In this document: piece after piece, positions 12,300-55,162 of the stretch
Layout of the letters: each line of letters opens with the position of its first letter
Position numbering within the stretch: position 1 is the first letter of the stretch
Source: Rhizaria sp. SCN 62-66
Lineage: Eukaryota
Length of the DNA: 55,318 bases
Assembly (NCBI GenBank): GCA_001724265.1
Contig: MEDY01000185.1
Span: 1-55,318, forward strand
Direction: 5' to 3'
Notes under the pieces: model-generated
Database searches by the model: none
Told to the model about the DNA's origin: nothing
The model's input: only the letters and a program-made list of their open reading frames with translations
Program-made: the position numbers and the translations under genes

Positions 12300-12884
12300 T
12301 CCCAACGACACACAAAATCAAGTCTTATAAACATCAAACTCACATCTTGAAATGAATTTGACGCACAAGCATATTTATGTGAACATGGCTTCTCTGAGCA
12401 CTCTTCAAGCGGCCGGTGCTGACGTTGTTAAACGTTTGTTGACGTCTTGCTTTGTGGTCTTCCGCGCGCTGTCGTTCGTCACACTTAATCAGCGTATTCC
12501 GTACGTCGCGGCAGATACAATTGCTGTTAATGATCTTTGGTGGTTCGCTTTGTGGTTCCGCTTTTGGTGTTCGGAGTGATCTCATTTCTTCACATCCCAG
12601 ACCGACAGTGTCCAGTGACCACGGTGTAGATTAAGCAAGATATGCACACAAAAAAGCTAGTCTAACTACGAAGCCATATTTTACTAAAACTCCTATCCCA
12701 AAGATAACTGAGTCATCTGCCTGTGATAGTCTTATGATAGTTGAACTCGGTTCTGGAGCTGAACATCTTGCCAGCCCAAGACGTTCCTTTAGTGACATCC
12801 AGGGAAAGATATCAATCGTCAATAGTCGTGAAAGGAAACTATATATAATCTCACATATACTACTATTTATTCTCTTATTCAGAG

Positions 12885-16115: not shown

Positions 16116-16450
16116 TTTATTAATTTAAACCTATTTATTACGTACTATATACACAATCTATTACTATATCACTCAATCTTGGAAGTTGAAGTTGTCCTTT
16201 ATGAGCCCCGCTGACGGTATCAAACTCGTTTGTGGTTGCCAGATACTCACGAGAAGCCAAGATAATGCCGTCTCCTCTTAATGACCGTCACACCATGCAG
16301 TTTCCGTGTAACACCAATGCGACGTAATTGAGCCTTGTATCATCACGATTCCTAACATATTTTGTGAACCATCTTTCTACTATTGTTTTCCTGACAGTAG
16401 TCCAATCCACAGAACTTCAGCTCTAGGTCAGCTTATCGCATCAGAGTGCG

Positions 16451-25400: not shown

Positions 25401-28400
25401 ATTTCGCATGCCCCACGGACGCCAGCAGTGTGTACGATAACACGTTCGGTACGAACAGCATGAGTGCAGCACTCACGGCGCGTGCCGCGGAGGCTGCGTC
25501 GGCGGCCGCTGAGTCAGCGTTTGCTGTTGCGCTGATCACTTTGTACCCGACCCCGCGTCAACAGGGCCGTTGGGCACACCCCACGGCTCCCGGCCGGCGG
25601 CTCAACTTGCTGCAGCGCGTCACGGCTGTCGCGCCCACGCCAACTGCGGCGTGTTTTGTGGCTGATCTCTCTGGCAATGCTGCGACCACAGTCACTGACG
25701 GTGTTGCTGGCAGCCGCTGGGGCTGGCTGAGTGCCGCCGACTCTGCGCTCTGCACCGCCTATATCGACGGCGTTAATACAACCACGCAGAGCAACAAGTC
25801 ATCGTCACTTGTTTCTGCTGCCTCGGCATCCAGCCATGCACTTGCACGTGCACTGCTGTCGCTCGGTTACATTGCGCCTGGCCCGCGCGCGCCTGCGCTG
25901 CTGCCTGCGCTGATGCCTCTGACTCAGGCCTCGTCGTCATCAGCGGAGGCGGCCGATATGCCCGGTCGCAAAACTGTGTTCCCGCCGATCACCGTTGTTG
26001 AGCATGTCCACCGCTCCATCAAAATGCGTGTCCGGTTTTCTGCCAAGGGTAGCACGAGCGCGAGCAACGCAAATGCTAATGTCCCTGTTGACACGGTATT
26101 GCTGCTTGAGGAAGCGACTGCAGACGCACTCCTCTCTGATTTGTACTCAATGTCCGAGAATCCCACGGTTCCCGGCTCTCGCGCCAGCGCACTCACGCAC
26201 GCCACCGCGACCGCGGCCTCCGGCGGCGGCGTCGACCCGAGTGCCCGCGGTGCGCTGCGCGCCAGTGCGCGGGCGCTGTTGCTAGACCCCACTGACCCGG
26301 CGCGCTGGGAGACGTTGAGTCACGCTGCCTACCGCAATGCGCTGTTCGCGACAGCTGCAGTCTCGGCCGCAGCTACAGGTGCATCGAGCGCCGGTACAAA
26401 GGATAGGGCTGTGGAAGAGAATGATGCAGAAGATGGTGGCAAGAAGAGTGGCCGGACTGCAGCTTCTCCCAAACTGCCTGGCAGCACTGCGACGATGCAT
26501 ATGTCGCTTTCTCGCGCACGGCTCAACTTAGATGAGGCGCATAAGATCAATTCGATGCCATTGCTTGCACCGGTTGACGAGTTCACTGAGGAGGAGCACA
26601 GCGACGAAGCTAAGTCATCTTCTTCCGTTGCCGATTTACTCTCGAACGCACCGCTTTGTTCGAGCAACAGTAGCAAGAACGGCGCTGCCGTGTCCGAGAG
26701 TAGCCTGAAAGAGGCTGCTGATGCCGCAGTACAAGCCGCAACATCTGCCTCGTTTTCCGCAATCGCCACCGTTGGCCCCGTGGTCGGCTCTCTCGGCGCG
26801 CTGTCACGCACTGTCCGCACTCTCGCTGCGCTAAACAACACTGCGTGTGCCAGCGCTAACAGCTCTCTGTGCAACGGCACGTCGCTTCGAGGCAAGTACA
26901 CGGCGAGCCCAGGTGCGCTGGTTGCATTCCTCTCTGCTTCAGCGCACGCTGCCTCCGCCGCTAGTCGCTTGCAGCGCGCGGGCGCTAGCGCCGGCGGCAG
27001 CGTCAGTGGCGCCGCTGCTGCTGTCGCCGCTGTGGCCGCGGCGCTTGCGCTCGCGCTTGCCCAGAGCGGCACGTGCGATGCTGCGACTGCCGCTGCCGGC
27101 GTCGCCCTTATCTGCACCAACAGCAACCGCAACAGTGGCAGCGCGGGTGATGTGGCAGATCATGCTGCACCGGTCGTCGCGGCGGCGGTGAGTAGCGCCG
27201 TTGCGATTAAGGCCGCAACCATTGTTCGCGCGAGCGCGGGCGATAAGCTCGGCTCCGCGCTCGCTCGTCTCAGGGGTTGTCGTATCTGCGTGTCGGCGTT
27301 CAATCCCAGTCAGCTCGCCACTTACTATAGCTGCGATGACACCACTACACCGAGCAACGCAATGAGTAGCAACAGTAACGCAAGCAACGAAGTCTCTGAC
27401 CCGCTCGTGTTGCTACTGCGCTTAGCCGTTGCGCTGTTGTTGAACGGAGATCACACAAACGCACGCCGCATTGCTGAGCTGGCCTCCGAGTCCCAACAAC
27501 AACAACACGCTGCAATGCGCGACTGGACCGATAAGATCGTCTCTGTCGGCGTGCCGTCAGTCACCACTCTGTGCACGGCTGCACAAAGCACGATTGAGGC
27601 GTCGTCTCCGGAGATTGCGAACATCGCAGTCTCCGCGGTTGAAGTTAAGCCGCCTGTCGTGTGGACTCGTGGCGCGTGCGTTCTGACTCAGCAACTGCTT
27701 GCGTGGTGCGAGATTATGCGTAGCGCGTGCTCGCAGACGCTTTCTGCAGAGCCCACGGTCCCCAAGCTCTCTAACGAGTCCTTCGCTGTCGTCATGCGTT
27801 ATATGCGTTGCGCTGCGGAGACTGCAAGTGCCATCCCGATCACCCTTTTCGAGCGTGCTCAGCAGCAACAGCAACAGGGTGGTGATATTGCACTGTCGAC
27901 GCTTACACGGCGCTGCCCCAGTGCCGCCGCTTTGGCGCTGCACGTGTGGCAAGACATCGTCGTTCTTGCTGAGCAGCAAAGTCAGTCCACCGTGCTATCC
28001 GCAGCAGCTGTAACTGGCGACCTTGACATCGACGGTGCTGCAGTGCCCGCGCTTGTGTCTGCTGCCCTTGCTGGCGCGCTGACTTTTGCGTACGCAATTG
28101 CGCCGGCACAACGCACTTTGTCGCGGTCTGCCGCGGCGGCCGAGGCGCAATCAACTGGCGCCGCGGCCTCCGGCTACGAAAGCGACTGTGAGCTGCCGGA
28201 GTACGCCGCGATGACTTCTGCGACTGACGCTGAGCTCAGCGCGGTGGAAAATGCCGCGTTCACCTGCAGCCCGCTGTCGCCGCTCTGGCACAGGCTCTCG
28301 CTCGCGCATTTCAGCGGCAACGGAGAGGACGGCGATGCGAGCTCCCACTCTAACGCGGTGTCCGTTGCCGTGGCAACGTTGCACGCGCGTGCTGGTGCGG

Positions 28401-29248
28401 CGTGCATTCGCGCTGCGCAGCGCCGTCCGCACGCGCTTTCGCGGCTCGATTTATGCGTGTCTGCGGCTCATAGTCACGCCGCGGCGGCGCTGCGTCTGCT
28501 GGCTGCGTCCCGCGCCGGCGCTGGTGCCGCGGCAGTCGCGTCGTTGTGCCATTTGATGCTGGCTGCGACCACGGGCGCCATCGCGAATACCGACAAGAAC
28601 GCTGACAAGGGTATCTCGACGATGACTGCGACTAAGCTTAAGGCGAGAACGCAGGCGCGCGTTCTCTGCCACTTGCGCGCAGCCCAACATTTAGATACGA
28701 CGGACAACTCTAACGCACAGACACAATGCACCGCGCCCACATCGCTGACTTCCGGGCCGTTGTCGCTCGGCCGCGCCGGCTCCGTCACGCTCGTGCAGTC
28801 CGCGGCGTACTGGGAAGGCACGGCGCTCACCACGGGCAGCGAGGCCGAGACGGGCGCGGTTGATCTGTTGCTCCCGATGGCCGTTGCGGCTGCCGGTGAC
28901 ACTGCTGGAGACCCGGCGGCGCTGGTCCAGGCTCAGGGCGCCATTGCCAAGGCCACGGGTGCCGTTGTCTCGCGCGTTAGGACTGCGGGGGCGGCGGTGC
29001 TGGCGGGCGTGCAGCCTGTGGACGCGGTGCGTGTCGCGCAGCAGACCGGCGCCAATGTCGAAGCGGCTCTGACCACGGCGGGAGGCTGGCCCGACAAGGA
29101 AGTGGACAAGGTTGTCGCGGCGGTGTCGCTCGTTACGAAAGCTGGACTGCTGGATGAGGCCAGGGCCGACAAGCTTGAGCAGAGGATTGCCACAGTGAAG
29201 AAGGACACTGATATGGCGAGGCAAAACTGGCTCAAGCCTTCGAAGTGA
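16451..29248 (+). CDS. SKI3: Giant (4265 aa) Ala-rich TPR protein, likely Ski3/TTC37 (SKI complex)-like
   Basis: A single uninterrupted 12.8-kb ORF. The segments AVNLTPRDPSLWRLLGLCAPTRVLHQHCVIEAIK and ARKAVSIARTLIPSSPLVWLAIA resemble the conserved Ski3/TTC37 block (A..L.P.....W..LG......LAQHCFI.S; A..A...A..LDP.....W). Ends in TGA. The coding call is firm, but the family assignment is moderate. Confidence 0.6.
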   Translation: MSTSTATATAVVVTPGCATALNTCLNEVRAHLFQSRWEQAVEAARKGWAIHSETVLAALQARSSSSSKSDKKDKKDKKADKDGKRDKKDKTDKKSDKKDKKSDKKDKKSDKKDKKDKKADHSDSDDDDSDDDGDDNSSTPQPASTAQITIPTATLDAIAVTALASTPVATPLLSLLLTAKPSKAATADCADAAAVALHALCLLACDAALSGSLPALVSLHWAHCARLIYPASAPAAVAFARGLAQANSSGANRNASGAAAEPTIEVASIAYRTGPAAAVEYLHQVLTSAAAAINAVNAGIVADNKSTAGTAGAIVKPLKEIAAEAVSLIHGVQGELLCQVSSPITVELGQKSYDMAGDHQVSGAAAEAAVAYTLALAPTVTALAVSSGAHCGADNDWNENRKAIAGALGYINCLHESLSSSSSDSSSEERIAKVAAAAGIENLDGFKSRCIFSTSKYLHTREIPGVSNQAEFARARGVAWSGVSTIEALSQTLASASALATLLEATATKIKTTTTPTVTKEAVTAALAAITAAQSPSAATSTAPSTASKTSSSRVVGKGIIATDPSVATPAATEATATALALAAAESARWLAAEAPVTVMAASTLTSMTSPSTNATVAHWPLQQTISATSLPLSTPGLRASPEALSATLPPLAWLYALCALLRARASLLLAVTAPVRGDCEQSPWARDAAAAEAAAAAAAAGLGSALGASGSASSSAAPVRPPIAQRPAIAPRPPLSNSNATTSTSTDAARPIGFRRTVAAEIAAGLDAATAAATAAAAPAPVAAVVTVAEADSDAVWTKPARLNFKAPWSARGVTESERLAVLRRALPADSDCGDHVKAAADTAAPSLRWVTDVSILRDAQWQCKYLSTAVAVARAHATASASASGNAVGSKVPAFVRSAATEAAWRVLTPYNGANPYTAVASTARATIARTEAEADAVAASLVLCAEPATVSIPTGPVPPASAFPDSNTGRLNFLAEQARLLLKANAARVMPVAYQAARLLASFAAFPCAEDMTDEKVLALALTPLNAHINHDDSDENSAQPSSLASYLRTARCVATRLSNLAPGHWLAKCLVPSVTAPVLASLTLTGSTSVAPTLPGSVTLPAALHAVASTLCTELQTAIAPSTGALLPNFVIPFAGDDVFAPLRHARTALALAAAAALSANASSGDTAVVDVISLNGGYGNVSRTAIIAAAASATGAAEGYAGVASSALESKIALTRAVVAAYGNVTTSAKANAAARVVQVLDCALRVFTATKGNTNDSVVAALDDSVGAKMSAVSDALSKLLCVSRNAGGGDSHQHVPVLLLALLLGVCNSPVVTAACPAVAVAVRVTCLKLDTTGALTELALTEAVTANVATVTPDQQLLGTSIFQTAVAASTSVTDYAAKLPAWARPHFEQSSVAAEVAQFVTHAAGTPEGGLYYISAQHVSVLSYIISAGEVSAEAMSSSVLALSPAATLALLWHSVTALSQSRRSQSPGAAAAGDDSTSAVTVGAEMARWALLWGFGLASQERRIDMTSALAAPDLSNNAHSHLSTAIASGAADLITLINGNAHVNSTVTETRSVIWPPMMSLLQGVLTRSPTHAGALTGLGHLLVFNAATTAISKNSEANAGSFTSDDVESSSLEHTHAVMALLRRARLVYCAAYTAGVRSSSSAAAASRAATATVKSSSDADAAGAALVRLTFEYAASVKNFPTDKAQMAEVCTVFPTTFLSSKAAITGIVPTGVSPRGEASAEESRYNAFALIDAICQPPHTPVLTASHSAWVWTARAQAMALQAQHAQTPKLLLVAARLTAAAAERAAAVLSSTTDTASEGTDADAAAVSVRAAAANAAATAAAAASVGARLTDAYAEAGQVLASMNAAVIACRHAAPLLATVNGSETGLSSFSSTGATSVPVGLTPLVAGGELVVAPCTNQSNFCATRLNFAAWGLWVYSTASAQARTGSLTDRLDAVWNLHCLLSTALQHATANDDSTAAAELPATGAAFGVTAAALLPLLKNTCAFATLTRARDSGQQQVTESDWAWVLPACHLLSTLYLRIAMQTRRARTAPPTVPTALLLRSCHFAAAATAIAGSSSAVPGVVIAVHKTAADALIAAADAPASADPSLFARAFSVTSHNAIVDASQAVRRLSLLKLADSQLAHALVFAPHLGSLWADRALCLRAAAWESGPLNPVESTALQRRALRCAKAAVNLTPRDPSLWRLLGLCAPTRVLHQHCVIEAIKRAASNAKSDKFGFSASEIARGEGYAHLAVVALDAAAAAARSLRSNSNDNGLNTGIECVGVNLNVARKAVSIARTLIPSSPLVWLAIAAWQAATAAHTAFLATSGSSSATLKTIAALSAGGAKGDLSDLTTNAVLTHAADLIADPVLAAETANPLASAIRTALASTAASGGAGARAAVETATFAAAAAEHELAAAGFPSAEDVLSLASAGTFTDVNAFLASLLPTSGVTDSAAVSAAALYMTVGATAELKSRISVASAAFAMAHMLLSLTVTSLDATLGDQPLPNGSAAVIITAATGNGAEAATQSLTVRTLAARASLARAFVSSGDSVSATTLYATLLDPYAASNAAATAAASLSAAASPVPVSVVFTTAVLTSAPAVLSPRLLALAENAPWLWGAAAAAFRASSNVDLAHTAVARQLAQLQTHAASAHAAVQRALLTAAKYDATNVSATNSAAATLHAAIDARSEVLAAVAEANALRASLYLEQGELENAHTAASAASTAPLLPHLPTVPELSALVSIANASPDTFNERLTASQQAAVTAAAADLAALDVRPPAVVLQAVFIQTVCLLRAAHAQAAQSDAQAQGAAALARLRRLESALHSRECTFNVEAIKAVLDGTTNSSSLGAADRTAKVGRPMLTLPLFCAPGDDKPEADAAFQTAPVAALTIVPTVTAVTAAATSDALAVLATQIAVLEASFTASLAQQHDGTGASVTASARALRRAAAKALLLRPEVTPLRRLLYATAAASSARSNVALLAQLDDDFACPTDASSVYDNTFGTNSMSAALTARAAEAASAAAESAFAVALITLYPTPRQQGRWAHPTAPGRRLNLLQRVTAVAPTPTAACFVADLSGNAATTVTDGVAGSRWGWLSAADSALCTAYIDGVNTTTQSNKSSSLVSAASASSHALARALLSLGYIAPGPRAPALLPALMPLTQASSSSAEAADMPGRKTVFPPITVVEHVHRSIKMRVRFSAKGSTSASNANANVPVDTVLLLEEATADALLSDLYSMSENPTVPGSRASALTHATATAASGGGVDPSARGALRASARALLLDPTDPARWETLSHAAYRNALFATAAVSAAATGASSAGTKDRAVEENDAEDGGKKSGRTAASPKLPGSTATMHMSLSRARLNLDEAHKINSMPLLAPVDEFTEEEHSDEAKSSSSVADLLSNAPLCSSNSSKNGAAVSESSLKEAADAAVQAATSASFSAIATVGPVVGSLGALSRTVRTLAALNNTACASANSSLCNGTSLRGKYTASPGALVAFLSASAHAASAASRLQRAGASAGGSVSGAAAAVAAVAAALALALAQSGTCDAATAAAGVALICTNSNRNSGSAGDVADHAAPVVAAAVSSAVAIKAATIVRASAGDKLGSALARLRGCRICVSAFNPSQLATYYSCDDTTTPSNAMSSNSNASNEVSDPLVLLLRLAVALLLNGDHTNARRIAELASESQQQQHAAMRDWTDKIVSVGVPSVTTLCTAAQSTIEASSPEIANIAVSAVEVKPPVVWTRGACVLTQQLLAWCEIMRSACSQTLSAEPTVPKLSNESFAVVMRYMRCAAETASAIPITLFERAQQQQQQGGDIALSTLTRRCPSAAALALHVWQDIVVLAEQQSQSTVLSAAAVTGDLDIDGAAVPALVSAALAGALTFAYAIAPAQRTLSRSAAAAEAQSTGAAASGYESDCELPEYAAMTSATDAELSAVENAAFTCSPLSPLWHRLSLAHFSGNGEDGDASSHSNAVSVAVATLHARAGAACIRAAQRRPHALSRLDLCVSAAHSHAAAALRLLAASRAGAGAAAVASLCHLMLAATTGAIANTDKNADKGISTMTATKLKARTQARVLCHLRAAQHLDTTDNSNAQTQCTAPTSLTSGPLSLGRAGSVTLVQSAAYWEGTALTTGSEAETGAVDLLLPMAVAAAGDTAGDPAALVQAQGAIAKATGAVVSRVRTAGAAVLAGVQPVDAVRVAQQTGANVEAALTTAGGWPDKEVDKVVAAVSLVTKAGLLDEARADKLEQRIATVKKDTDMARQNWLKPSK
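16652..16810 (+). repeat. Lys/Asp (KKDK/KSDK) coding tandem repeat near the N-terminus of the Ski3-like protein
   Basis: Translates as KSDKKDKKDKKADKDGKRDKKDKTDKKSDKKDKKSDKKDKKSDKKDKKDKKAD, followed by a poly-Asp run. Confidence 0.9.
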
Positions 29249-29521: not shown

Positions 29522-32500
29522 ATGTCTTCACAGTTCAACATAACACCTTCCGTGGGTGACTCGGCATTTTCAACCTATATCAAGACGACTCTGGCCGCGG
29601 CGACAACGCGCTTCACCGCAGCCATCGCTGCATGCTCTTCAACAACAGCAGCTTCAGGAACAGCTGCAGTGCCCGTCCCATTCTACCCTCCTGAGTGCTA
29701 CACCGGCAACTGCGAGTACAAGTGGCAACTTGTCTCCGTCTCCCCGAACAAGATCATTTCTCTCTCAACGCAAATGAGGTATCGGTTGGCCGAGGGCAAC
29801 GGTGTGGCGACATACCGCCTCGGCGTGATGGACTCCGGCGAGCCTGTCGGCTGCACTGACTCAGCCCTGCTCTCGTCACTCCTCGCGCTCCAGTGTTGCG
29901 CGCTCGTGCTCAACGCGCGCAAGGTCGGAATCATGTGCGATATTACGCCGCTGCTGCTGCCGAGCGCGAGCTTCTCCAGCAGCACAGGCCCGCGCCCCGC
30001 CGACGACTCCACGTCGCCGTACAACACTACAGCCGCCGCGGTCGCTGTGAACAACGCCGCCGTGGCCGCCAAGCTCGCCACCGAGGCGCTGGTTGACCTG
30101 GCGACCGTGACCGTGCTGCCCGCGCTCAATGGCCACAAGCTCGCCGAGATCTCTCTCCTCGTGCGCCGGGCACCGCTGCCACAGCCGTTCGCGCTCGCCC
30201 CCACAGTCGCCCTCGCGGGCCCCTCTGGCAGCGGCAAGTCGACGCTGCTGAGTCTGCTGGCTAACCGCGCGGGCTCGGAGGGCGACGACGGGTGCGGCCG
30301 CGCGCGCGCTGCGGTCGCGAGGCACGCGCACGAGCTCTGGACAGGGCGTTCATCCAGTGTTGGCATCGTGAGTGTACCGATAACATCGCTGCTTACGGTC
30401 TCTGGCGATGATAACACTGGCAACGCTATAAATGCTAATTGCTCAGTCACGGACCCGGATATAGGTTGTGGTGTCTGTGAGCGCAACGCTGGCTACCGCT
30501 AGACCTCGGTGACTTCTGCTTTTGAGACTGCAGCAACGACTCATGGGAACACTGCAACAGAGACTGCGCCGGTGACCGTGGGCGCCGCGGGTACCGGTGG
30601 TTCCGCTGCCGCTGCATGTGTGACGCTGATTGACTTAGCGGGACACGTGGGTTACCAGCGCACGACACTGGGCGGACTCATGGGTGCTGTGCCCGACGCT
30701 GTTGTCGTTGTGCTCGCTGCGAATGCGTGCGACAACCACAACAACACCGTCAATCATAGCAACAACAACAACATGAGCAACAGCAACAGTAACCGCATGA
30801 ACAGCGGAAACAGTACGACTGCGACCGCGGCTGCTCCTGTCGCGGCATCGTGTGTGGTTGGCTGCGAATCAGGTTCAGTGTCGAATACACTTGTCCCGAT
30901 GCTCGTGCCCGGCATGCTGTCACGCACGCAGTCGATGCGCACACGGCCGCACGGCCATGACTTCGCCTTCATCACTGCAGCCCACAAGAACAGCGCGAAC
31001 GCAGACGCTGAGACTGATGCTGCGGTGGTGTCGACTGCGGCGGCGACTGTGTGCCCGGTGTATCAGGCCGCACTGCAGCTGCGCCTGTGTGCTGCTCTCG
31101 GCGTCCCTGCCATTGTTGCACTGACGCATGCTGACTGCGCAGCGAGCGAGGAGGGCGCGTGCACTGGTGAAGATGCAAATTGCACACGTGCTGGCATAGT
31201 GGACCCGGAGGACGACTCTAAGGACGGCGCGGTTAAGTGTGAAGAGGGTCCCAGTGCTATATTAGCGAACGCGGGTGGCTTCGCATTGAACGCACCTCTT
31301 CTTACTAAGTACCCCGTGGTCGAGGTACTTAGTCGGACTCTTGCCGCGCTCGACTCAGCTCTTGAGACTGCAACAGAGTCTCGCGACGCCAGAGACAAGT
31401 CTAAGGGTGCACTTACACGTCGCTCCGTTGTCCTTAGCCGCGACACTCGCGTATTCCCTGTGTCCGCAGTCACAGGCTCCGGTCTCTCAGCACTCGCGCG
31501 TGCGATCGCCACCGCGCCTCTGCTGCCCTGGCGCCGTAACACGTCCGCTGCGCTCACTGCAGCGACTGACTGCGAATCAATTTCACACGCCACTGTGCAG
31601 ACAACGGCCGCGACGGCTGCTGATGACACGTCTGCAACGGCGGCTGTCCAGGTCAACGAGGAGCACGACGGCGAGAGCAATGAGTCGGTCGTCGTGCGTG
31701 TAACTGGCCGTCGTGCAGTGCGCCGCGCTGGCACGATCCTCTCCGTCCACGTCGTTCGCGGCCGCCTGACCGTGGGCACTGTGCTCTACCTGTCCCCGCC
31801 AACAACTGTGGGTGCATGCTCACGGTCACTCGGCTCACAGTCGGCTGCGGCAAACAGCACGGCGCAGTCGCGGACGCAGTCGAAGCAGCAGTCGCGCGTG
31901 CAGTCGCGCTCTCAGTCGCACTCGTGTCTCCAGTCCCTCTCCTCGGAGTCAGCAGCGACAGAGACCACTGCGAACGTGAGCGTGACTGCGCAGAACACGC
32001 CTGCGTCCGCCCCCTCAGCTGTCATTGGTAGGACTGCAATTACGACAGCATCGGTGGCGGCGGCAGAGCTTTGCGCAGTGACTGTGCGGACTCTGCGCGT
32101 CCACCGCACAGACGTCTCCGCCGCGGTGGCAGGCCAGTCCGCGTCGTTCCGGATCGATCGCCGCGACTGTGAGCGCTGTGACCCGCGTCGCGGCATGGTC
32201 GGGGCCAGTGATCCTGCCGCCGCGCTGTATCTCTGCACAGGCGGCAACGGCAACGAGGAGAACGTCGAGAACGATAACAGCGCGGATGCGGCCAATGTGA
32301 GCGCGAAGAAGAAGGCGCAGCAGTTTGGCTTGCGGTTTGGTGTGACGAAGGCGATCGGTGGTGTTGTTGAGTACATGATTCCTACACAGCTCGCATCGAC
32401 TAACAACAACAGCAACAATAACAACAACGTCAGCAGCATGTGTTCTAGCATGGGTACGCGGTGCGCAAGCCCTGCTGCGGCAGGTAAGCCGCCACGGGTA

Positions 32501-33116
32501 CGCTCGCCTGCCGCGCTCACGAGCACGTACCCCGTCTCCGCCGCAGTCACGCAGATCTCCAGCTCTGGAGTGCCCGGTGAGTGCGCGACGACTGTGGGGG
32601 CCGCAGTGAGTGCGGATGGCACGTGTGTGAACTCGCAGCTCTTCCACTCGGCATGGTCGCGGCTTTGCACGCAGCACAACGACAACAACATCGGCGCTGA
32701 CACTGACAGCAACACTGCTAAGAGCGATTCGAACTCTGCTGCGGTTACAATGCAGCAGATAAAGAAGCCTGCGGCGGTTGCTGTGAGCAGTGGCACGGAG
32801 TTCGTTGTGCACGGCACAGGCATTTCACAGTGCGCCAGCCTCTACACTCTTACACCGAGTCTAAGTACCCCGTTAGACCACGCCGTGTTTGTGCCCGCAC
32901 TGTGCGTGTTCCGCTACCACCATGAATCCATTTCGTGCGGGCAGCGGCTTGTATTACGCCAGGGCCGCAGAGTCGTTGCTTTATTACGTGTGACTCACGT
33001 GTGGCCTGTCCCGCTCACAGTCAGCAGCACCACGCGCACTGCGAACACAGCGGCGGCCACATCACCTGCACAGAAGGCCAAGAAGTCTGCTGCCACAGCA
33101 ACTGCTTATGCGGCCG

Positions 33117-33149
<33 letters not shown>

Positions 33150-34075
33150 GTGTAGCTGTTGCGCGGACGAGTAACAGCGTGCCCGTCGGTAATGACAGCA
33201 ACAGCAACGACACAGCGACTGCTACTAAGCTCGGCAAGACACCGACGAAGCCCAGCGCGGCGACGCGTGCGTGCAGCGACGGCAATGCAATGACCGCGCT
33301 TGACTATGTGGCGAGTGTCGCGACTCCGATCGCGACGGTCGGCACTGGCTTCATCGGCAGTGCACCTGAGTCAAGAGCTGTCGCCGTTCCAGAGACCGAC
33401 TCTGAGCACTCTGACACTGACAGTGACAGCGATACTGCCAATGACACGGGCCCAGACTCAGATTGTGGCGGCAACGGCGTGGGCAATGACAGTCACAATG
33501 TACGCTTTGCTGGTTCGGCGATGGGAGGTGGCATACGCTCATTAGCTGCTCTCGATTCTGACTCCGACTCGGATTCTGCCACTGACAATGACGGCGACAA
33601 CGACATTGACAGCGAGAGTGACAGCGACGCGGGCTCGGACTCTGCTGACTCCACAAGCAACTGGAATAATAGCAACAGCAATCGTGTGACTGGCGCAGGT
33701 CTGTGGGGCTTCACCAGCCCGACGACCACGACTAAGTCCTCATTAGCCGACGACTCTGACCCGTTCACTGCTGCGAACTCAAGCATGCACGCCAACGTTG
33801 CTCTGCGCAGTAACGTCGCTATCCCGAGATCGGCCGATGACACGACTGCGAACAGCACAAGCCGCGGCGACCGTGGTGGCAGCGTCGCCGATAGTAACGG
33901 GGCGGAGGACAGTGAGGCCGGGCAGGGGTCGCTGTGGGGCACTGGCGAACTGTTCGGAGGGCTGTCTGACACGAGGGACTGGATGGAGATTAAGCCGCAG
34001 CAGCAACACAAGGCGAAGGCGAAGACGCAGCAAGGGGACAGCAACAGCAATGCAGTTTTCAACAAGAAGACCTAA
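29522..34075 (+). CDS. GTPBP2: GTPBP1/GTPBP2-family translational GTPase (~1517 aa) with an in-frame TAG at 30500-30502
   Basis: The N-terminal PPECYTGNCEYKWQLV..LSTQMRYRLAEGNG...YRLGVMDSG matches the GTPBP2 N-domain. G1 (GPSGSGKST) and RHAHELWTGRSSS precede the TAG. G3 (LIDLAGH), G4-like LTHAD, G5 (FPVSAVTGSG) and EF-Tu-like beta-barrels follow in the same frame, since ORFs 29522 and 30509 are co-frame. Ends in TAA. Confidence 0.85.
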
Positions 34076-36419: not shown

Positions 36420-39400
36420 ATGGCCAGTGATACCGTGGACAACGCTCGCCGCGGGCGTCAGCTTATCACGCGCATTGGCTTTATCATCGTCCTTTGCTTT
36501 TTCGTCGCGCTCGTGACTGTCAGGTACGTCCCACCACGAAATCAACCCGATTACTCAGCATCTTGCCGATCCCCGTCCTTTGCATTTCCTCATCACAACA
36601 ACACTCTCGTGCGCTCTGATTGTTCCCTCGTTATAGCATGGCTCCTGTTGGTACTGGTAACGCGTTCATGCGTTCGTCCCTCACCTCTGCGCCCGGCGCC
36701 AGCGGCGGCGGTTTAGCCACGGGCGTGGACGGCACTGCCGCCTCGGCCGCCGCCGCCGCGCCGTCTTACTATGAGCACATTCAGGGTGCCCTCGCGCGCG
36801 CGTCGTCCGCGCTGCCGTTCTTCGGCCCAGCCGCGCCGCAGGACCCGCTGGCGCATCTGCGCGCGCGTCCGCGCGTCATCGTCTCCTTGACGACGATCCC
36901 GGACCGCATTTTCCTGCTGCGCAAGACGATCGAGTCGCTTTTGGAGCAAACGGCGCCCGCAGATGAAATTCTCCTTAATATCCCTTACAAGGTACGCAAA
37001 GCGCATTAAATCCTTTGTACCAAACTCCGTTTCATCGATTTAGCTTTGTATGACTTTTCATCTCATGTTTTCTATGTCTTCCTGTGTTTCTTTGCTTGTG
37101 TTAGTCTCGTCGTTTCGTTGACGACGACGATAAGCCCCTAGAGTATGTGATCCCATCGTTTATTGCGAACGAGCCACGCGTGACGGTGCACCGTATCCCC
37201 AACGACTCTGGTCCGGCAACGAAGTTTATCCCCGCTATTGAGCGTGAGCTTGACGAAGGACGCTGGGACAGCATCATCGTCATTGGTACGTTCCACAAAA
37301 CACTGAAATAAATGAATAAGATATCATGTCTTTAGCATGATATGTATTTATAATGTAGTAGTTCATTAATATTGTTTCACTTTAGTTTTGTCTCAATATG
37401 TTCTCATCCTGGTGTTTATTCATCAAAACATTGTGTGCGTGTTTTTAAACTCTCATAGCGGACGATGACGTTGACTACCCTCCTGGGTGGCTCGAGACCT
37501 ACCTCTCCCACTACCTCTCCGATCCGTCACTGCATGGCTCAGCTCTGGGCATGCGCGGCTACTGCATCCCTCCGGCCAACATCTGGGACTGGAAAATCAT
37601 CTCTCAAATCGCGCAGACAGGCGTCAAACTCACTGAGCGCGCCAAGGTGGACGTTTTGACCGCGAATCACGGGATTTTGCTGCGCCCGTACTACTTCAAG
37701 TACATGGGGCCCGCGATCAAGGATGATTCACCTGAGTCTGCGTACTACATGGATGACATCTGGATCAACGGTATCCTCGCTATCAATAACGTCACCAAGT
37801 ACGTCATTCCCGCAGCCGCTGACCCGACGCACCGCAAAGTCGTCCAAGTCGCCACAAACACGCTTGAGAACGTGCCCGCTGGCCGCGCGTACCACAACAA
37901 CATCCTCATGACGCATTTCGAGGATCACTGGTCCAACTGCCCTCTCCCGGCGGACGCAGAAGTCGCGAGCTACTACATGCGCTACACCGCCCCCAGCAAA
38001 AAGCACCTCAACCCGCCCCGTGAGTTGCCCAAGTTTGAGTGGAACACCGAGCGTTTGGACACCGTCGCCAAGGCCCACCAGGCCGACAAGGACGCCGCGG
38101 CCGCGGGCGACGGCGCCGGCGTCGGTGGCAGAAAGGGCGGCGCGCTGCTCGCAGCGCTCCAGTCGATCCAGGCTGAGGCCGTGAAGGAACTCACTCAAGG
38201 CACCGCGGGTACCTCGGGCTCCGCCGGTGAGGTGAGTGACGCGACAGTGGATGAGGTCTTCCAGCGCACGCTCTCGCGGCTCGCGGCTGCCAAGAGTGGC
38301 GACTCCACGGGCAGCGGCGGCGCGTTGGGGGCCGTTGTGGATAAGGCGTCGATTGCGTCGTTGTTTGCGGAGCGGAAGAAGCTTAGGGAAGCGATGGCGG
38401 CTCGCCAGGCCGCCGCCGCGACTGGCAACGCTGCCGCCTCCGACTATAGTTCGAGCTCTAGCTCTACTGCTGGCTCTAGCACTGGTTCTGCCTCTGGCTC
38501 TGCGAAGTCTGGTTCAGGGAGCTTTGGTGACACCCAGTCGATTCTCGCGGCAATCAAGGGGTCCACAAAGGACACTTCGAGTCAGCTGCCACCGTCCCCG
38601 CCTGCGTATGTCCCTCCGTCCACTGCCACCAACACTGCATCTAAGTACGCGAGCGGTTACGGCAGCGACAACTACGGTGCCGGCTCCGTCAAGAGCATCC
38701 TTAACAGCGCCAGCGCCAATAAGAAGGATGGCGATGAGGGCGCGGTCTGGTTCGGCCCCCGTCCTACTGCCGGTCGCGCCGGCAGCAGCTCTGACAAAGA
38801 CAAGGCGGACAAGGAGAGCAGTGAAAAGAAGACCAGCCCCGGCGGCGGTTATGACTACGGCGGCGGCGACTACGCTTACTACATGCGCCGCGTGACCAAG
38901 GGCATCAACCTCAAGGACCTCGCGGCGCAGTTTGACGGCACGGCGCGGCCGCCGACCGACGCTGAGCTTGCGGCGATGATCAAGAAAGAGAAGGAGGCGG
39001 AGGAGAAAGCGCTGGAGCGCGAGCGCGAGCGCGAGCGGGAGATGTTTGCCGCAGAGCGTGAGGCGCGGCTCAAGACACGGCTTGAGCGCGAGCAAGCCGA
39101 CGCGGACAAGGACAAACACGGCGATCAAGACCGCAGCTTGAGTCAGGGCCACAGTGCACGCGAGCGTGAGAGCGCGCGCGAGGAGAGTGAGGCAGCGGTG
39201 GCCAAGGCAAAGCGCAGTGATTCGCTTGAGAAGTGGTTCTCTGAGCGCGGTGTGCATTTGCCCATGAAGCCCGCGACGGGTGCCGCGGGTGTTGGCGCGA
39301 GTACGGGGCTTTACGATGGGTACCGTTCGGATAAGATTTCCGCCTCCGCGCTCCTCAGCTCAACTGCGCCCCCGACTCTGCTCTCCAAGTCATCCAACGG

Positions 39401-46974: not shown

Positions 46975-49900
46975 ATGGACGTTACTGAGCGTGAGCAGCT
47001 CCGCCAGGCGCGCGCCCGCCGCCACAACCAGGCTGTTTTGCAGCAGCAAGTGATCCCCAGTGACTTCAACGACCCGTTCAAGTACCGCGCCCCCGTGCGC
47101 CGCCGCGTCTCTTCCGTCTCGGCGCGCCCCGCGGGGAGAGCCTCCGGCGGCGCGGGCGCTGGCCGGCACGCCGACGGCGGCGGCAGCGACCACGACGACG
47201 ACGATGACGACGACGATGACGAAGGCGTGAACCACGCCTACAACCCCTATGGTGACGACGACAATGATGCCACGAGCGCTGGCGACGCGCCGCGCGGGAT
47301 CGGCGGCCGCAAGCTCGCCCTCGCCATCACGGCCACGCTGTACCAGTACACGTCCGCGACGTCCGCGACGGCGATCGGCCCCCGCAGCGTCGCGCTCGTC
47401 GGCAGCACCGGCAGCAGCGGCGGCCATGCACTTGTCGTGTCGGACACTGCACGCAAGACCCAGTTCCTCACTGTGCCGATCGATGCCAACTTCAAGTTCA
47501 CGCTCGTGGCGCCCGATGACCTTCCCGCCGCTCTCGCACAGGCCACCGCGAGTAACAACAGCACAGGCACGAGTACCCCCATGAGTACGTCCACGTGCAC
47601 TGTGCCTCCAGTGGCGCGTTTCTCCGACGGACTCAACACGTGGCTCGTTCTCTTCGCCCAAACGCCCCATCTGGCAGATTTCGCGCTCAACATCGCCCTC
47701 GCACGCAACGCTGCGTGCCACCGCGCGCGCCCCGGCACGCCCCGCGCCATCATCGCTCAGGATCTGTGCCTCCTCGCTCCCCCCGCCGTCGACAGCGCAA
47801 ACAACAACAACAGCAACATCAGTAGTAGTAGTGCGCTTACGTCGGCGCCGCCCGTGCGGATCGGCGACAAAGTGCGTATCCGCTACTCGATGCAGACCGT
47901 GAGTGCGGACGGCGGCGCCCTGGGACCCACCGCCATCGCATGTGACTTAACTAAAGTCTTCGACGTCGGGACTGGTGTTGGCGCTGTGCCGAGCGGGGTT
48001 GAGCAGGGTATTCTCGGCATGCGCAAGGGCGGGGTGCGTTTCCTTGTTATCCCGGCTGTGATGGCGGAGGCCGCGGACGACTGGGGACCGCACGTGCCGA
48101 CCCACGTTGACCTCGCGGTGGAAGTCACGCTGGAGAAACATAAGAGCATCAACGCGACGAGCGCCAACACTGACGCTGCTGCCGCCGACCCTGTCACTGT
48201 CACCGCGAGTACGGGCGCCAGCAATGGCGGCAAGGCGAGTGCGACGAGCGGTGCGTCTGTGCCTGAGTCAACATCGTCGTCCTCGAAGGGTGCTGCTGCT
48301 GGTGCTAGTAGTGGGCGTGGTGCCAAGGCGCGTCGCAGCTACGGCTACGCGTCGTCGTCGGTGCAAAACGACGACGAGGACGATGGACAGAGTGCGTTCT
48401 TCGACGCTGAGCCCGTCTCCGCGTCGGCTGCAGTGGCGGCCACGTCGAATGCGGCCAAACGGCGCGCCGCTGCCGCCGCCGCTGTCGCCGCCGCGACCGC
48501 CGAGGCCGAGGCGGAGGCCGCCGCGGCTGCCGAGGCGGAAGCTTCCGTGGTGGCTCCTGTCCCGTTGCCGGTGCAGTCGTCGCCTGTCCCGGAGCCAGAT
48601 CAGGCCGCATTCGTCGCGCCCCTGTCCTTGGCCACGAACACCAGCATCAGCGCCAACGGCTACGAAGCCTCATCCCCGACCGCGGCCGTCACTCCTGCCG
48701 CTGCGGCGGACAGCGCCGAGGCCAGCGAAGCCGCGTTGCGCGAGCGGATGCGCAAGATCAGCGCAGCCGCACACGCCGGCCACCACGCGATGCCCTCCGC
48801 AGGCGCCGCGGGCGCCGCCGCCGTCGCCGCCGCCGCCGCGACCGCGATGGCCGCCGCGCAGGGGTCGCCGGGATTCACTGCAGTCAAATCCCCCTCTGGC
48901 TCTGGCTCTGGCAGCGCCGCCGCTCACGGTCACGGTCACGCGGCGGCGTACGGTCAGTACCCGCAGGGCCGGCCGTCGCTGTCGGGCGCCACCGCCTTCG
49001 CTCTGTTATCACCCGCTACGACTGCGAGCTCGGGCGCTTCCGCAGCAGCAGTTTACGCTGCCAGCGGTGGTGGTAACGCTAACCTGAGCCCTGTCGCGGC
49101 CACTGTTACGCCTGGCGGTGTCGCTGTCTTTTCCCGCGCCACCCCTGTCTCCGCCGTGCTCCGCTATCTCGCCATGGACCCCTTCGCCTCTGCTTTCGCG
49201 GCGCACGCCGTGGACACCCTCGACGATCTGCTGTTGCTCGAGGACGAGGACTGGAAACTGATCGTGCCGCAGATCGGCGCACGACGCAAGCTGCAGCTGC
49301 GTGTTGGGGAGATTGGTGCGACGATGAATCAAAGTCAAGCCGCGGCGGGGGTGAGCCAGAGCAGAGCCGCGAAATACGCGATTCAAGCCCTCGCACAACA
49401 ACAACAGCAACAACAGCAGCAGCAGAGCGTTGCCGCGACTGCGAGTGCCACTGCGGCTGTCGCGGCTGCTGCGGCGGCGAACGCGGCGGCGAACGAGGTT
49501 GAGGCCGCGGGATCTGCGGTGCCGGAGCGCGATACTGCGCGCATTGACGCAGACGCGTACGACCGTGGGCGCGCTGATGTACGTAGACTTATGCCGAACA
49601 AAAACACACGATATCTCACCCATATATCCATATATCTCACAAATATGATAAAATCATATTTAATTATGTTTTCTATCTAACTATCTTAAATTGTGTTCTC
49701 TCATGGCTTCATATGCATTTGTATTTGTTCTTTTGTAGGCGACTGCGGCGGCTAAGGCCAAGATTGACACAATGAAGGAGATTGCCAATGAGAAATTCTC
49801 TTCTCTCACTGCAGAGCTTGAGGCTGCACACAAGGTATGTGGATAATCCATTATATCCTAATTAAGCTCCATAACGCATCTCCATTCTGTAATGTGCTTG

Positions 49901-50521
49901 AGATGACTCTTATGAGCATGTTCCTCACGGTTGTTTACTTTTTCTGAAATTTTTGTTGTGTAGGAGATTGCGCGTCTGCGCGCTGAGCTTGACGTTGCGC
50001 AGAAGGACGGCGCTAAGACTAAGGAGACGATGCGCGTCTACGTTGAGCAGATGCGTGAGACCCGCAAGGAAGAGACCAAGGTACGCTTTGCAGTCACTTC
50101 TTAATTTGACTTCACAAAATTCGTCTTGATAAGCTATTCTCACAATTGCATGGATCATCAACGCATTTAGTGATATCACTCGCTTCGTAACGCAACTTTA
50201 TCAAGTTGATCATATCTTTGTTTTTAACTGTTTCAATTCGTATACTTTCAGGAGCTTGAGCGTGCGACTACCGAGGCGGCCGAGGTCCGTGCCGAAGCAC
50301 TGCGCTATAAGGCGCACATGCGTGAGCAAGCGGCCGCGCTTAAGGCCACCGCGCGCGCTGAGCTCAAAAACCAGGTCAAATCGTTGTCGGAGTCAATTTT
50401 CGTGCAGATTTCGACTGTGTTCAACGCCAATGATGTGATGGATGGTGAGACGGTCCGGCTTAAGATGAAGGAGTGTCTGCGCACCACGGCGGCGGAAGCG
50501 CTTGCGAACATTGGCGAGTGA
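46975..50521 (+). CDS. FKBP15: FKBP15-like protein (~1028 aa): PH/WH1-like region, FKBP domain, SAM domain, coiled coil; exons 46975-49578, 49739-49834, 49964-50080, 50252-50521
   Basis: The FKBP domain reads VRIGDKVRIRY...GVEQGILGMRKGGVRFLVIPA...VPTHVDLAVEVTLEK. The C-terminal VKSLSESIFVQISTVF...MDGETVRLKMKECLR resembles the FKBP15 C-terminal helix. Three phase-0 GT..AG introns keep the frame. Ends in TGA. Confidence 0.75.
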
Positions 50522-50999: not shown

Positions 51000-52310
51000 A
51001 TGGTTGACTTTATCGCAGTCAAATGTCATGCTTGCAACACATTCCAGGTACATTTTGGCTGCAATTGCATGACTTGTGTGAACATGTGTCGTTGCACTGC
51101 TGTCTGTCTTGCGTGTACGCTCATGGTGGTTAGGTGAACAAGGAGCAGAGACGGAAAGTGAGCGAAGCAACACTTCGGCTCGTTCGAGAGACGCTACACC
51201 GCGTTTGATGCTGTCATACGTAGCAGCTACGTCGGATATATGTGTGTTTAATTGTTGGCAGGCTTGAACTGACCGCCGGTCGTGCCCTATACAACTCTGA
51301 CTCAGCTGTCGGATCTGACAGCTAGGGCTCGCATTCATCCTTTGGCACGGAAGCAGGCTGCCTGAACAAACATGAACGCAACCTATGTTTTCACGGGAAT
51401 CATTGTGAACGTATATCTTTCTTGTAATGGGGTTACTGAACCTGAAGCTTACATCTTAGATCCCCTATCGTAACCTTACCCCACTTTCTTGCTGTTTGAC
51501 CTAGGTTCAACAACAAAACAAAAAGGCAGTTTTCCAGTGCAAGATGTGCGGTGAAAAGCAAGGCATCGCACGGGTACGAAAAATAAGATCGTATATATAA
51601 TATATTTTGTCTCTCATCCTAGTTCCGAGTCTTCAAGTGCTCATCGAGATGATCCTCTTCGGTATCTTTTGTGGTCATTGTAGGTGTACTGCTTGTCGAC
51701 GAACGCTGCCGAGCTTCGTGAGCTTGTGATGCGGCTTAACTATGCCAAGGGCGAAGCATAGACAACTGCATCGATGGCTCCTGACACTGCGAACATGATG
51801 ACTGATTGCAATAAAGGCAACGGTAACAGTCAACAACAACGGCAGCCACCGCTGCCGCAGCAGCAACAAGGTTATGGAAGCTCACAATCGCGCAATCATC
51901 ACACGTACATTGGCGCTACTGCGGGTGCCTATTCGATCTCGACCTTGATGCCTGCGTCTACTGCTCTTGCCCTTGGCAAGCAGACCGCTAGCTCTGGAGC
52001 ATCATCAGTAACATCAGCCAACAGCAGCTTTGGCAGCCTCCGCGCACCGACTGCAAACAACAGCACCGACTTTGGCTTTGGCTCTGCAACGAGCAACGAC
52101 TTTGGCACGTACACCGGCGAGAACACAACGTCGTTTGCCCGCAAGCAATACGCAAACTCCCAGTCGCGGCACAATAACTCGCTGTATGATAGCTACAACA
52201 GCATTGAGGATGAAGACGACAGTGATGAAGACCAGGGCAATGGCTACGGCTCGGGTGCAGCGTTCTATAGCAAGATGGCTGCGAGTCAAACGATGACAAT
52301 GGTCCCAGTT

Positions 52311-52342
<32 letters not shown>

Positions 52343-52910
52343 AATGCCGCAGCCTATGGGCAGTCGCTACAGCAACCAAACCAACAACAACAATAGCTCT
52401 CACGGTTACTCAAACAGTAGCGCTGCCGTCAATAGGCGCATGTACAGCAATAGCAATAATAATGTCCCGAATAGCACGAGCTCTAGTACGAGTGCCTTGA
52501 ATGCCCCTGTTGGAGCGCGCAGTCTCTATAGCTCTGCTCACGGCCACTCCGCTGTTCACGGTCATCATGGAGCTCACGGTCACACTCAAGCACACAGTCG
52601 CATGCTCGGTCGTGTGCAAGCGACACCGCCATCGACACCCGTCACGGCCACAACCCCGCCTGCTTTCTCCGCTGCGAACAACAACATTTACCGCAATACC
52701 GTGCATGACAACACCAGTGTGTTTGCCAATCAAACGTCGAATAGCAAGTCTGGTAACGCGAGTGCTGTCTGCGGCCCGTCGCCACCTCGGTCATTCGGAC
52801 ACGGTGGCGCTGGTCGCATCACCCCTGCGTATGGGTTATCTCACCCGTCACAGTCGCTCTCCACTGAGCCGCAATCGCTCTCCACTCAGCCGCAGTCGCA
52901 ACAAGAGAAA

Positions 52911-52949
<39 letters not shown>

Positions 52950-53540
52950 TAGCAGCAAGGACAGTTTGGGCAGCAGCTCTCGTCACAGTCGTGGCCGCCA
53001 CCGCAAACACTGCAGACGCAGCAACAACAACAGCAGCAGCCACCACAGCAGCAGCGGTCAACACCTGCGCAGAAGCAGACGTCAAATGCAAGCATCTTCT
53101 CTGCTCCCTCTGTTCACGGTCCATCTGCGGCTCCCAGCGGTGGTGGTCTTTACGCCACCTCCACAAGGCAAGTCAGCGCGAAGCGCACTGCGCCGGACAG
53201 CGACTACAATGACGTGCAACCACTGCGTAATGCGCCCGCTGGAAACAACAACGACGGTAGTCATCACGCGGGGAACGCTTCTGTGCAAAACTTCCAGGGC
53301 CAGAGTCAGCATCCGAATCAGACAGGATAGCCACTGCTTGGACAGCAGTTTGGACTCGGCTTTGGGGGCGCAGGAGCGCAGCAATGGACTCCGAACGCTG
53401 GGCAGAATCAGTGGGGCGACCAGCAGCAGCAGCGGCACCGTCGTGTCAATGTTGACGATGATGATGACGACGACGATTACGATGAAGCGGAGCGGAGGTC
53501 GCAGGCTGGTGCTGCATTCTACGCCCGGATGGGAATGTAA
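51000..53540 (+). CDS. MRNIP: MRN-complex-interacting protein (MRNIP/UPF0544)-like (~657 aa) with three in-frame TAGs (51759, 52950, 53328); exons 51000-51047, 51505-51573, 51684-53540
   Basis: The spliced N-terminus MVDFIAVKCHACNTFQ|VQQQNKKAVFQCKMCGEKQGIAR|VYCLSTNAAELRELVMRLNYAKG matches the MRNIP zinc-ribbon pattern (C..C..FQ..Q..K....CK.CGEKQ....Y......R..V..LN). The same frame continues as a Q/N/S-rich region to TAA at 53538-53540, interrupted only by TAGs. Confidence 0.82.
52911..52958 (+). repeat. (CAGCAA)n polyglutamine tract containing an in-frame TAG
   Basis: Sequence reads CAG CAG CAA (CAG CAA)5 TAG CAG CAA. Confidence 0.92.
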
Positions 53541-55162
53541 TTGATTTATTTAGACACATGTAACACTCATATTTCCACAATAGACTACTTAGCAAACAGT
53601 TTTATTCTCAATTCTGACATGTATCCAAGGGAAGCTTGTTATCATTTCTGTACAAGCTAATTTCCCCCCACTCCCGTCTTGTTGATATGTGTGTTGTGCT
53701 TTTCGGCCCCCAATATGATAGTATTTCCCCAGTTTATTAAACGCTACTCAACTAATGGTGATACAAGTTTAAGTAGTCAAAGCTGTTCAAATATGTAAAT
53801 GGTGGTAAATCAATGTAATAATTAACTCGTCAAAATAGGACCTTTGACCAAAAATAACAACATATTTTATTAGATTAAAGCAAAATAGGTCCGGATTTAA
53901 TGTATTTTAATCTAAACATAATATATTGGCAAGATATCACTTGCAATCCACTTGAAGCAGTGTGACTGCTCACATAGCTGATACAGATGAAGATGCACCG
54001 GATGATAGGAAGGTTTAGAGAACGAAACAACTAATTTATAGGATCACAACTGGCGTTTAAGCACTGCAATACCTGCTACACCAGCATACGCTTTCTTTGT
54101 TGGGCTACACTCAACCCTTGTTGGGCATCGGGACTAACACCACGACAGAGATGCGTTGATGAAGAGATTGAGCTTCAAGCTGTGGCTTCAAAATTGCCAA
54201 TGGACATGGTTATACAATGACATGCTTGAACGCAGTGATACTTATCAGCGTCAGGGCCGCTGTGGGACAACCTTGTATTAGTCGGAACTGGCGGAACTAC
54301 TGACTCCATCCTTTTGACTTAGAGCGGAGGTTGGGCGTTTAACAAAGCCCGTTATCAATAACTTTGGAGCACATTATATATGAATAGATTCATAGCATCC
54401 CCACACTTATTTTCATTTCTCTAATTCCACCCATCCGAACCCAACCTCTTACAGATGCATGTCGCTGGCTCTGACACGAACGGAAGCCAGCCCCCCGCAC
54501 TCCTCGTTTTGAATTTCAATCCCAAATTCAAAGACATATCCACAACTTTTACTCAATACACATCACAATTATGAGCTCGAATTCTAAATCTTGCGCATAG
54601 CAGGAATGCTATGTAAGGCCTGTAAAGCAAATAGCCTGGTCTGCGTGCATCTTAAGCAGGTTTTGAGTCCCCGGATGTCCATAAACGGCAATGAGGCAAA
54701 AAAGCCAACTGATAACGGATTGCCAACGATCGCGTATACATCGAGATAAGAGCTAACACCACGATCCATCCTCACGTTTAGCGTCATTTCCCTCTCTTCG
54801 AAATTACCATCATTGTTCGAGGCAAGCTCTAGATCGTCACGAGCTTGGGTTGCTCAGTTTCGAATCACTACGGGAATAATTAAAAGATTGTGTTTTCAGA
54901 GACAAATGATCTCAGAGAAAAACATACGTTTTCGCTCGTTGACGGAGAAGACATCGAGGAAAGCATCTCAGTTATGCGCCTATGCTCCAAGCCGAGACAT
55001 TTACCCACGGTCAATGACTGTGAGTCGCTACGATAAAAGTAACGCAGCCAGTATTTGCGGAAGCCTGTAGATGGAGCAGGGGTCGTAAAAAATCCTGGCG
55101 AACACTCTCACATTTTCATCGCTAGTACTTTCGAAAACCCGAAAGGCAGTTTCATTTCAACA

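Follow-up and report, generated by a model that had tools for sequence, protein, structure and literature searches.

Three in-frame TAG codons in the tail of an MRNIP-like gene of an uncultured wastewater protist: recent truncation or rare sense codon

The stretch of DNA analysed here (contig MEDY01000185.1 of assembly GCA_001724265.1, filed under Rhizaria sp. SCN 62-66; 55,318 nt, hereafter the window) carries on its forward strand an MRNIP-like gene whose last exon is interrupted by three in-frame TAG codons. Exon 1 (51000–51047) has 16 codons and the first CxxC pair (CHAC). Its ATG at 51000 opens the frame four codons after an in-frame stop, and a GTACAT donor closes the exon. Intron 1 (51048–51504, 457 nt, GTACAT...TAG) joins exons 1 and 2 in frame; its guanine-plus-cytosine (GC) content is 0.49 and the pyrimidine share before its TAG is 0.75. 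Exon 2 (51505–51573) adds 23 codons with the second CxxC pair (CKMC). Intron 2 (51574–51683, 110 nt, GTACGA...TAG, GC 0.36) has the donor and the acceptor of the host consensus and agrees with a start of exon 3 at 51684. These and all other introns of the window were deduced from open reading frame (ORF) structure and composition, with GTACG sites read directly, and not from RNA. The 23 residues of exon 2 alone matched the Pfam family PF15749 (MRNIP) with an E-value of 1e-4 and 23.5 bits, under the 27-bit cut-off, over profile positions 12–33 of 106. Exon 3 alone had no Pfam match at E-values up to 1; the tail is of low complexity and lacks a Pfam domain. Human MRNIP has two CxxC pairs, followed by a helix and a long disordered tail. 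The two CxxC pairs and the low-complexity tail of the window gene fit this layout, which is a likeness in architecture rather than a computed comparison.

Exon 3 (51684–53540) spans 618 codons in frame. Its translation contains exactly three stops before the final TAA (53538–53540), all of them TAG, whereas the other two forward frames have 7 and 36 stops. A head of 25 codons (51684–51758) precedes TAG1 (51759–51761), which is flanked by the residues GEA and TT. Segment B (51762–52949) follows with 396 codons rich in Ser, Asn, Ala and Gln. It contains the first copy of a motif (52197–52277), an acidic run followed by GAAFYSKM. TAG2 (52950–52952) is located at the end of a (CAGCAA)n run, after 13 Gln codons and before two further glutamines. 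Segment C (52953–53327) has 125 codons and is Gln-rich. TAG3 (53328–53330), between NQTG and PLLGQQ, is followed by the 69 codons of segment D (53331–53537), which carries the second copy of the motif (53448–53531, an acidic run and GAAFYARM) at the C-terminus. The frame ends with its TAA on a compositional boundary.

The in-frame translation confirmed the three TAGs that the original prediction had placed in one exon at 51759, 52950 and 53328. It had also named a C at these sites in other data as an observation that would speak against them. Independent assemblies were available as contigs of the public runs X2 and X3, which look like one data set, and of run X4 from a different study. TAG1 and TAG3 showed no differing letter in the X2/X3 and X4 contigs, and this identity rules out an assembly error at either site. 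TAG2 lies within a repeat without a covering contig and rests on the assembly of the window itself. Over 2.8 kb, the sole difference found was a length polymorphism: the GCT (poly-Ala) repeat at 52305–52350 differs by one codon, in frame, between the window and the contigs of X4 and of the RNA run X6. The contigs of this poly(A) RNA library cover 52214–52422 and 53367–53700, and none covers exons 1 and 2, the introns or the TAG sites. The tail is thus probably present in a transcript, though a 3′ untranslated region (UTR) would be covered equally. Contig joints at the locus have short sides of 20–23 letters and low complexity; they were taken as repeats of other organisms.

The coding character of the tail was measured with a codon-usage log-odds score trained on the other ORFs of the window, for which whole reference ORFs range from 0.19 to 0.49. 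Segment B scores 0.195 in the claimed frame versus −0.23 and −0.31 in the other two. This is above all off-frame and non-coding control windows and at about the 1st percentile of true coding windows. Segment C scores 0.019 (other frames −0.17 and −0.15) and segment D −0.044, about equal to frame 2 (−0.08). Starting from 0.315 in the head, the score declines from segment to segment along exon 3. Segments C and D jointly have −0.003, below every true coding window (1st percentile 0.136) but higher than 99% of the controls. Frame 2 is open from 52501 to 53544, but its negative codon scores rule out a switch to it.

The repeated motif consists of an acidic run and GAAFY[SA][KR]M, with one copy in the middle of the tail and the other at the extreme C-terminus. 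The last 32 residues align to residues 172–198 (NSIEDEDDSDEDQGNGYG-SGAAFYSKM versus NVDDDDDDDDYDEAERRSQAGAAFYARM) with a score of 56. When the C-terminus was shuffled 2000 times, one shuffle scored as high; with only its last 14 residues, three of 2000 did. The GAAFY cores begin at 52254 and 53508, and three of their five identical residues are coded by different codons. The GC content is 0.60 in the 200 nt upstream of the TAA and 0.36 in the 200 nt downstream. Frame-specific stop scarcity, the score of segment B, the repeated motif and the GC drop at the TAA support that the tail frame down to 53540 is coding, or was so until very recently. The original prediction had described a repeat on both sides of the TAGs, written in different codons, and had concluded that the distal region is translated. 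The repeat stands as significant. For the translation, the coding-like frame, the motif and the GC boundary speak in favour, and they fit coding in the recent past equally.

Relatives of the tail were not found. Exon 3 and segment B had no relative among 5.8 billion clustered proteins, a search that missed even the window's own ORF, probably because its word index was swamped by low-complexity words. An exhaustive HMMER search of 1.84 billion representatives yielded no match to the tail. Exon 3 and the neighbouring FKBP-domain gene, back-translated and scanned against JGI metagenome contigs, gave no match, and neither did exon 3 and the ORF 9119–10603 in IMG/VR. Because no searched library contained a homologue of the tail, no TAG could be aligned to a conserved residue.

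The use of TAG in the rest of the window provides a test of UAG as a glutamine codon. The ten other long ORFs comprise 12,190 codons with 260 CAG and 85 CAA, or 345 Gln codons. Their in-frame TAGs number none among 345 Gln-type codons, or one if an ambiguous TAG at 30500 is counted. Zero of 345 sets a 95% upper bound of 0.9% on the TAG share of Gln codons, and would have a probability of 3e-13 at the 8% usage reported for Iotanema spirale. As a neutral synonym of CAG, TAG should occur about 102 times, judging by the TTG/CTG ratio (122/290). The MRNIP exon has 3 of 79; under equal usage, the probability that all three TAGs fall there is 0.006, or 0.02 counting 30500. Among the 11 gene models, one or two contain an in-frame TAG. 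When the whole window was scanned for stops with coding-like sequence on both sides, sense-strand TAG showed no excess apart from 30500 and the MRNIP tail; the other flagged stops lie on the opposite strand of larger genes or in another frame. The window contains no tRNA gene, hence no suppressor tRNA, and no eRF1 gene.

An established, widely used UAG=Gln code is not supported, because 0–1 TAG among 345 Gln codons contrasts with 8–32% in known lineages; a code of the known kind is ruled out. The MRNIP-like locus, proposed as the strongest evidence for UAG=Gln, is therefore not strong evidence for it. Three stops that are all TAG had also been considered an unlikely pattern of decay. They are weak evidence, because TAG is the most likely nonsense product in a Gln-rich tail: it accounts for 53–57% of the possible single-base nonsense changes, and three of three are TAG with a probability of 0.15–0.19. 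In the exons of nine gene models, the trinucleotide TAG occurred 33 and 67 times in the two off-frames, whereas codon shuffles predicted 53 and 113 (z −3.9 and −4.9). By this depletion, TAG acts as an avoided word and not as a free synonym. Avoidance of cryptic TAG acceptors may be the reason.

The ambiguous TAG (30500–30502, forward strand) lies in a GTPBP1-like GTPase gene (29522–34075), between the G1/G2 and the G3 (DLAGH) motifs. The public protein record of the GTPase is only the fragment after the TAG (P0001, 1167 aa). Two explanations apply to this TAG: a codon, sense or nonsense, or the last bases of an atypical in-frame intron that runs from 30368 or 30374 to 30502. Homology to GTPBP1 (9ypg) stops exactly at the candidate donor at 30368 (GTGAGT), and the segment holding the TAG is without a counterpart in GTPBP1. 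Dropping the 45 codons reduces the motif spacing from 82 to 37 residues, compared with 32 in GTPBP1. In both GC and codon score, the segment ranks at the 4th percentile of coding windows. As an intron, it would have GTGAGT or GTACCG as donor, a length of 129 or 135 nt, both divisible by three, a GC content of 0.52 and a pyrimidine share of 0.50. Judged from these letters, an intron is conceivable and is not an easy explanation.

The favoured reading, held tentatively, is a standard genetic code and a recent nonsense truncation of the MRNIP-like tail. The gene would once have coded for about 680 residues, with a zinc-ribbon head, a disordered tail rich in Gln, Ser and Asn, and a short C-terminal motif. 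The three TAG stops would have come from C-to-T changes in Gln-type codons. Translation would now end at 51759, and the 64-residue product would retain the two CxxC pairs. The other 1.8 kb would be an untranslated relic, too young to have lost frame, composition and motif. We infer that TAG terminates translation at this locus and that the mutations are recent. The reading covers the scarcity of TAG elsewhere. The only lesions are the three TAGs; segment B keeps its coding score, and segments C and D have fallen below coding windows while still exceeding 99% of non-coding ones. A nonsense-truncated gene or a young unitary pseudogene would look similar, with stops made by single C-to-T changes in the Gln codons of one gene, or two, and otherwise TAG-free coding sequences. 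Pseudogenes usually differ in having frameshifts and mixed stops, whereas the MRNIP tail combines three TAGs with no frameshift, an intact motif and unchanged composition. Near-absence of TAG terminators without a code change has a parallel in the fornicate Euthynema mutabile, which uses the standard code: UAG terminates only 7 of 170 genes, and the available part of its description reports no in-frame UAG in coding sequences (PMC9161772). Under a standard code, the locus would be a young truncation of an ordinary kind, in a dispensable accessory gene of DNA repair. Its main value would then be as a caution, since stops that are all TAG are the expected nonsense pattern in a Gln-rich tail.

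Several observations weigh against a recent truncation. Nonsense changes are only 4–5.6% of the possible substitutions in the tail, and three of them imply about 50–75 substitutions in 1.85 kb if neutral. Yet the 618 codons are without a frameshift, TAA or TGA, and the terminal motif is intact. The truncation needs such a clean decay, which is estimated at a few per cent. By extrapolation from the exon 2 match, a product ending at 51759 would break off near position 59 of the 106 in the MRNIP profile. The GC content falls only at the TAA and not past TAG1. Nowhere else in the window do two coding-like ORFs meet at an in-frame TAG except at 30500. That TAG requires a second nonsense-mutated gene or an atypical intron, and the candidate intron departs from the host signals in its donor, its length class and its pyrimidine tract. 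The 11 gene models end in TAA (seven) or TGA (four) and never in TAG. The power of this count is low: zero of 11 has a probability of 0.09 at a TAG share of 20% and of 0.31 at 10%.

The second reading keeps UAG as a sense codon and is possible, short of being the preferred one. UAG would be a rare or leaky sense codon, at about 1% or less of Gln codons, in an early or weakly tolerated stage of reassignment. Glutamine might be inserted by a tRNA with the anticodon CUA or by a near-cognate tRNA-Gln, so that the full 680-residue MRNIP-like protein would be made. The TAGs would arise from CAG in fast-evolving, weakly constrained segments. All four in-frame stops within otherwise intact genes are TAG (three in the MRNIP-like gene and the one at 30500), and frameshifts are absent. 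The frame of the tail is open to a significant, codon-divergent C-terminal motif and ends at a GC boundary. TAG2 stands where the alternation of CAG and CAA predicts CAG, and the insertion that contains the TAG at 30500 is weakly constrained, with an atypical candidate intron. RNA contigs cover parts of the tail, as they would a 3′ UTR. The absence of TAG terminators also fits, with TAA as the commonest stop (7/11) at a GC content at third codon positions (GC3) of 0.63–0.83. Known UAG-reassigned lineages likewise prefer UAA, according to the available parts of their descriptions (PMC5304391; PMC11687900).

The closest parallel is Iotanema spirale, with UAG as Gln and UAA and UGA as stops. The accessible part of its description gives 204 in-frame UAGs in 126 genes, about 8% of Gln codons, many of them at conserved Gln positions, and no UAG end among 119 complete transcripts (PMC5304391). 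As far as that part goes, the two cases agree in that only UAG is affected, Gln is the natural reading, UAA is preferred and UAG terminators are missing (0/119 there, 0/11 here) (PMC5304391). They differ in use: outside the MRNIP-like gene, the window has 0–1 TAG among 345 Gln codons, and no conserved position carries one. Two phyllopharyngean ciliates, Hartmannula sinica and Trochilia petrani, read UAG as Gln and keep UAA as the main stop; in the portion of the source at hand, UAG makes up 18.5–31.8% of Gln codons and occurs in 78–84% of genes (PMC11687900). The UAG-only change and UAA as main stop are shared, on the same partial source, whereas the ciliate genomes have 27–54% GC and the window has about 58% GC and introns of 110–563 nt. 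A precedent for uneven stop use among transcripts is Amoebophrya sp. ex Karlodinium veneficum, in which, by the accessible text, reassigned stops are unevenly distributed and about half of the transcripts have none (PMC6394959). In that text, it differs by the involvement of all three stops, an AT-biased genome and far higher absolute numbers (PMC6394959).

The same comparisons count against UAG as a rare sense codon. Usage elsewhere in the window is 0–1 of 345 Gln codons versus 3 of 79 in the MRNIP exon, far from the roughly 102 TAGs of a neutral equilibrium. The window offers neither a suppressor tRNA nor a TAG aligned to a conserved residue. The prior for a new nuclear code outside ciliates is low. 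The described UAG=Gln lineages use the codon for 8–32% of Gln codons, and about 80% of the genes of the two ciliate lineages contain it, as far as the available sections of their descriptions tell (PMC5304391; PMC11687900). A narrower form of the idea, in which a GC-rich non-ciliate protist has dropped UAG as terminator and reads it as glutamine at an early stage of reassignment, is doubtful but tenable. With the same reserve, the return of UAG to coding sequence would be confined to fast-evolving, weakly constrained segments: three sites in the MRNIP tail and one in a loop of the GTPBP1-like GTPase. The two leading readings fit about equally; rough estimates for the rare sense codon swing from 20% to 60% with the pseudogene rate and the prior. 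The window cannot settle between a recent truncation and a TAG read as an amino acid.

If TAG is translated, the protist would be a further independent nuclear case in which the meanings of UAG and UAA are split. With its very low use of the reassigned codon, it would represent a sparse, codon-capture-like intermediate in a nuclear reassignment of UAG alone, the first of its kind. Codon-capture and ambiguous-intermediate models predict such a sparse stage, whereas the described lineages all show widespread use. Gene callers would truncate host proteins, as with the GTPase that is recorded only as its post-TAG fragment.

The remaining explanations are unlikely even when taken jointly. Separate polypeptides by reinitiation, or an assembly error in the repeat that would concern TAG2 only, are improbable. 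An ATG at 51774, 12 nt past TAG1, is close enough for reinitiation, and TAG2 is without confirmation from other assemblies. Reinitiation after a 64-codon ORF is inefficient in eukaryotes and would leave TAG2 and TAG3 unexplained, and TAG1 and TAG3 were confirmed in independent assemblies. Programmed readthrough under a standard code, with the 64-residue form as main product and extended forms at low level, has still less to recommend it. It would account for a coding-like frame and a conserved motif downstream of the stops, and readthrough extensions have been described in insects. Three successive readthroughs would multiply to a very small yield, and the TAGs share no downstream context (ACA ACT, CAG CAA and CCA CTG).

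The weakest explanation, that the TAGs are changed by U-to-C RNA editing or removed before translation with unrecognised introns of which they are the acceptors, is very improbable: TAG is the usual acceptor of the window (11 of 13 introns, the other two having CAG), but no GTAYG donor lies upstream of the MRNIP TAGs at usable distance and phase, and the tail has no AT-rich, T-rich intron character. The only consensus GTACG in the tail (52486) would, in our reading, shift into a stop-rich frame. Splicing out TAG1 needs a donor at or before 51726, inside the part adjoining the conserved MRNIP head. The GC content of the tail is 0.56 versus 0.29–0.59 in the real introns, and pyrimidine tracts are lacking.

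The 13 introns of the window follow a common type. On the forward strand, GTAYG-type signals, ORF structure and composition placed them at 5254–5794, 8284–8413, 8629–9118, 12501–13063, 36524–36636, 36992–37104, 37286–37458, 49579–49738, 49836–49963 and 50081–50252, besides the two of the MRNIP-like gene (51048–51504 and 51574–51683). One lies on the reverse strand (44724–44531) with a GTACGT donor; a run of about 30 T stands just ahead of its acceptor. The donors are ten GTACG on the forward strand, the one GTACGT, one GTACAT and one GTATGT. Ahead of the acceptor, all ten introns tabulated have a pyrimidine share of at least 0.60. Lengths range from 110 to 563 nt, and none of the 13 is divisible by three (P = 0.005). 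A permissive search for spliced exons gave 552 candidates; it was too unspecific and was replaced by reading the GTACG sites. The ORF-bounding TAGs at 1816, 5792, 9116 and 13041 were rejected as in-frame stops, being intron acceptors or inside introns. For example, the intron 5254–5794 joins two ORFs into one gene, and the intron 12501–13063 contains the TAG at 13041.

Long ORFs, AT-richer spacers, spliceosomal introns and a histone H4 gene characterise the window as nuclear eukaryotic DNA. The long ORFs have about 62% GC. Near-identical DNA is present in bioreactor, wastewater and activated-sludge metagenomes, and the source appears to be an uncultured wastewater protist that does not look like a ciliate. 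The large proteins of the window are mostly without a Pfam domain and have long runs of Asn, Ser, Ala, Thr and Gln. One uninterrupted ORF (16427–29248) reaches 4,273 codons; its codon-usage score is strong, and its Pfam matches do not rise above noise. A Pfam search of six further ORFs detected only a histone fold, and an Rfam search of the window had no match. The ORFs 1819–5253 and 5795–7219 appear to be one gene (1819–7219), joined in phase 0 via a 541-nt intron. A DUF2608 domain (E-value 1.8e-17) forms the C-terminal part of the product. In the Atlas, this family is found mostly in Chlamydiota, Pseudomonadota and giant viruses, and the look-up gave only bacterial and giant-virus clusters. 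The distribution hints at a possible gene transfer into an amoeba-like host. The histone H4 encoded at 11863–12183 is divergent. Scans of genome contigs (53 loci) and viral contigs (14) found at most 70–71% identity to it, except for one fragment of 36 residues with 81%. This divergence suggests a fast-evolving lineage.

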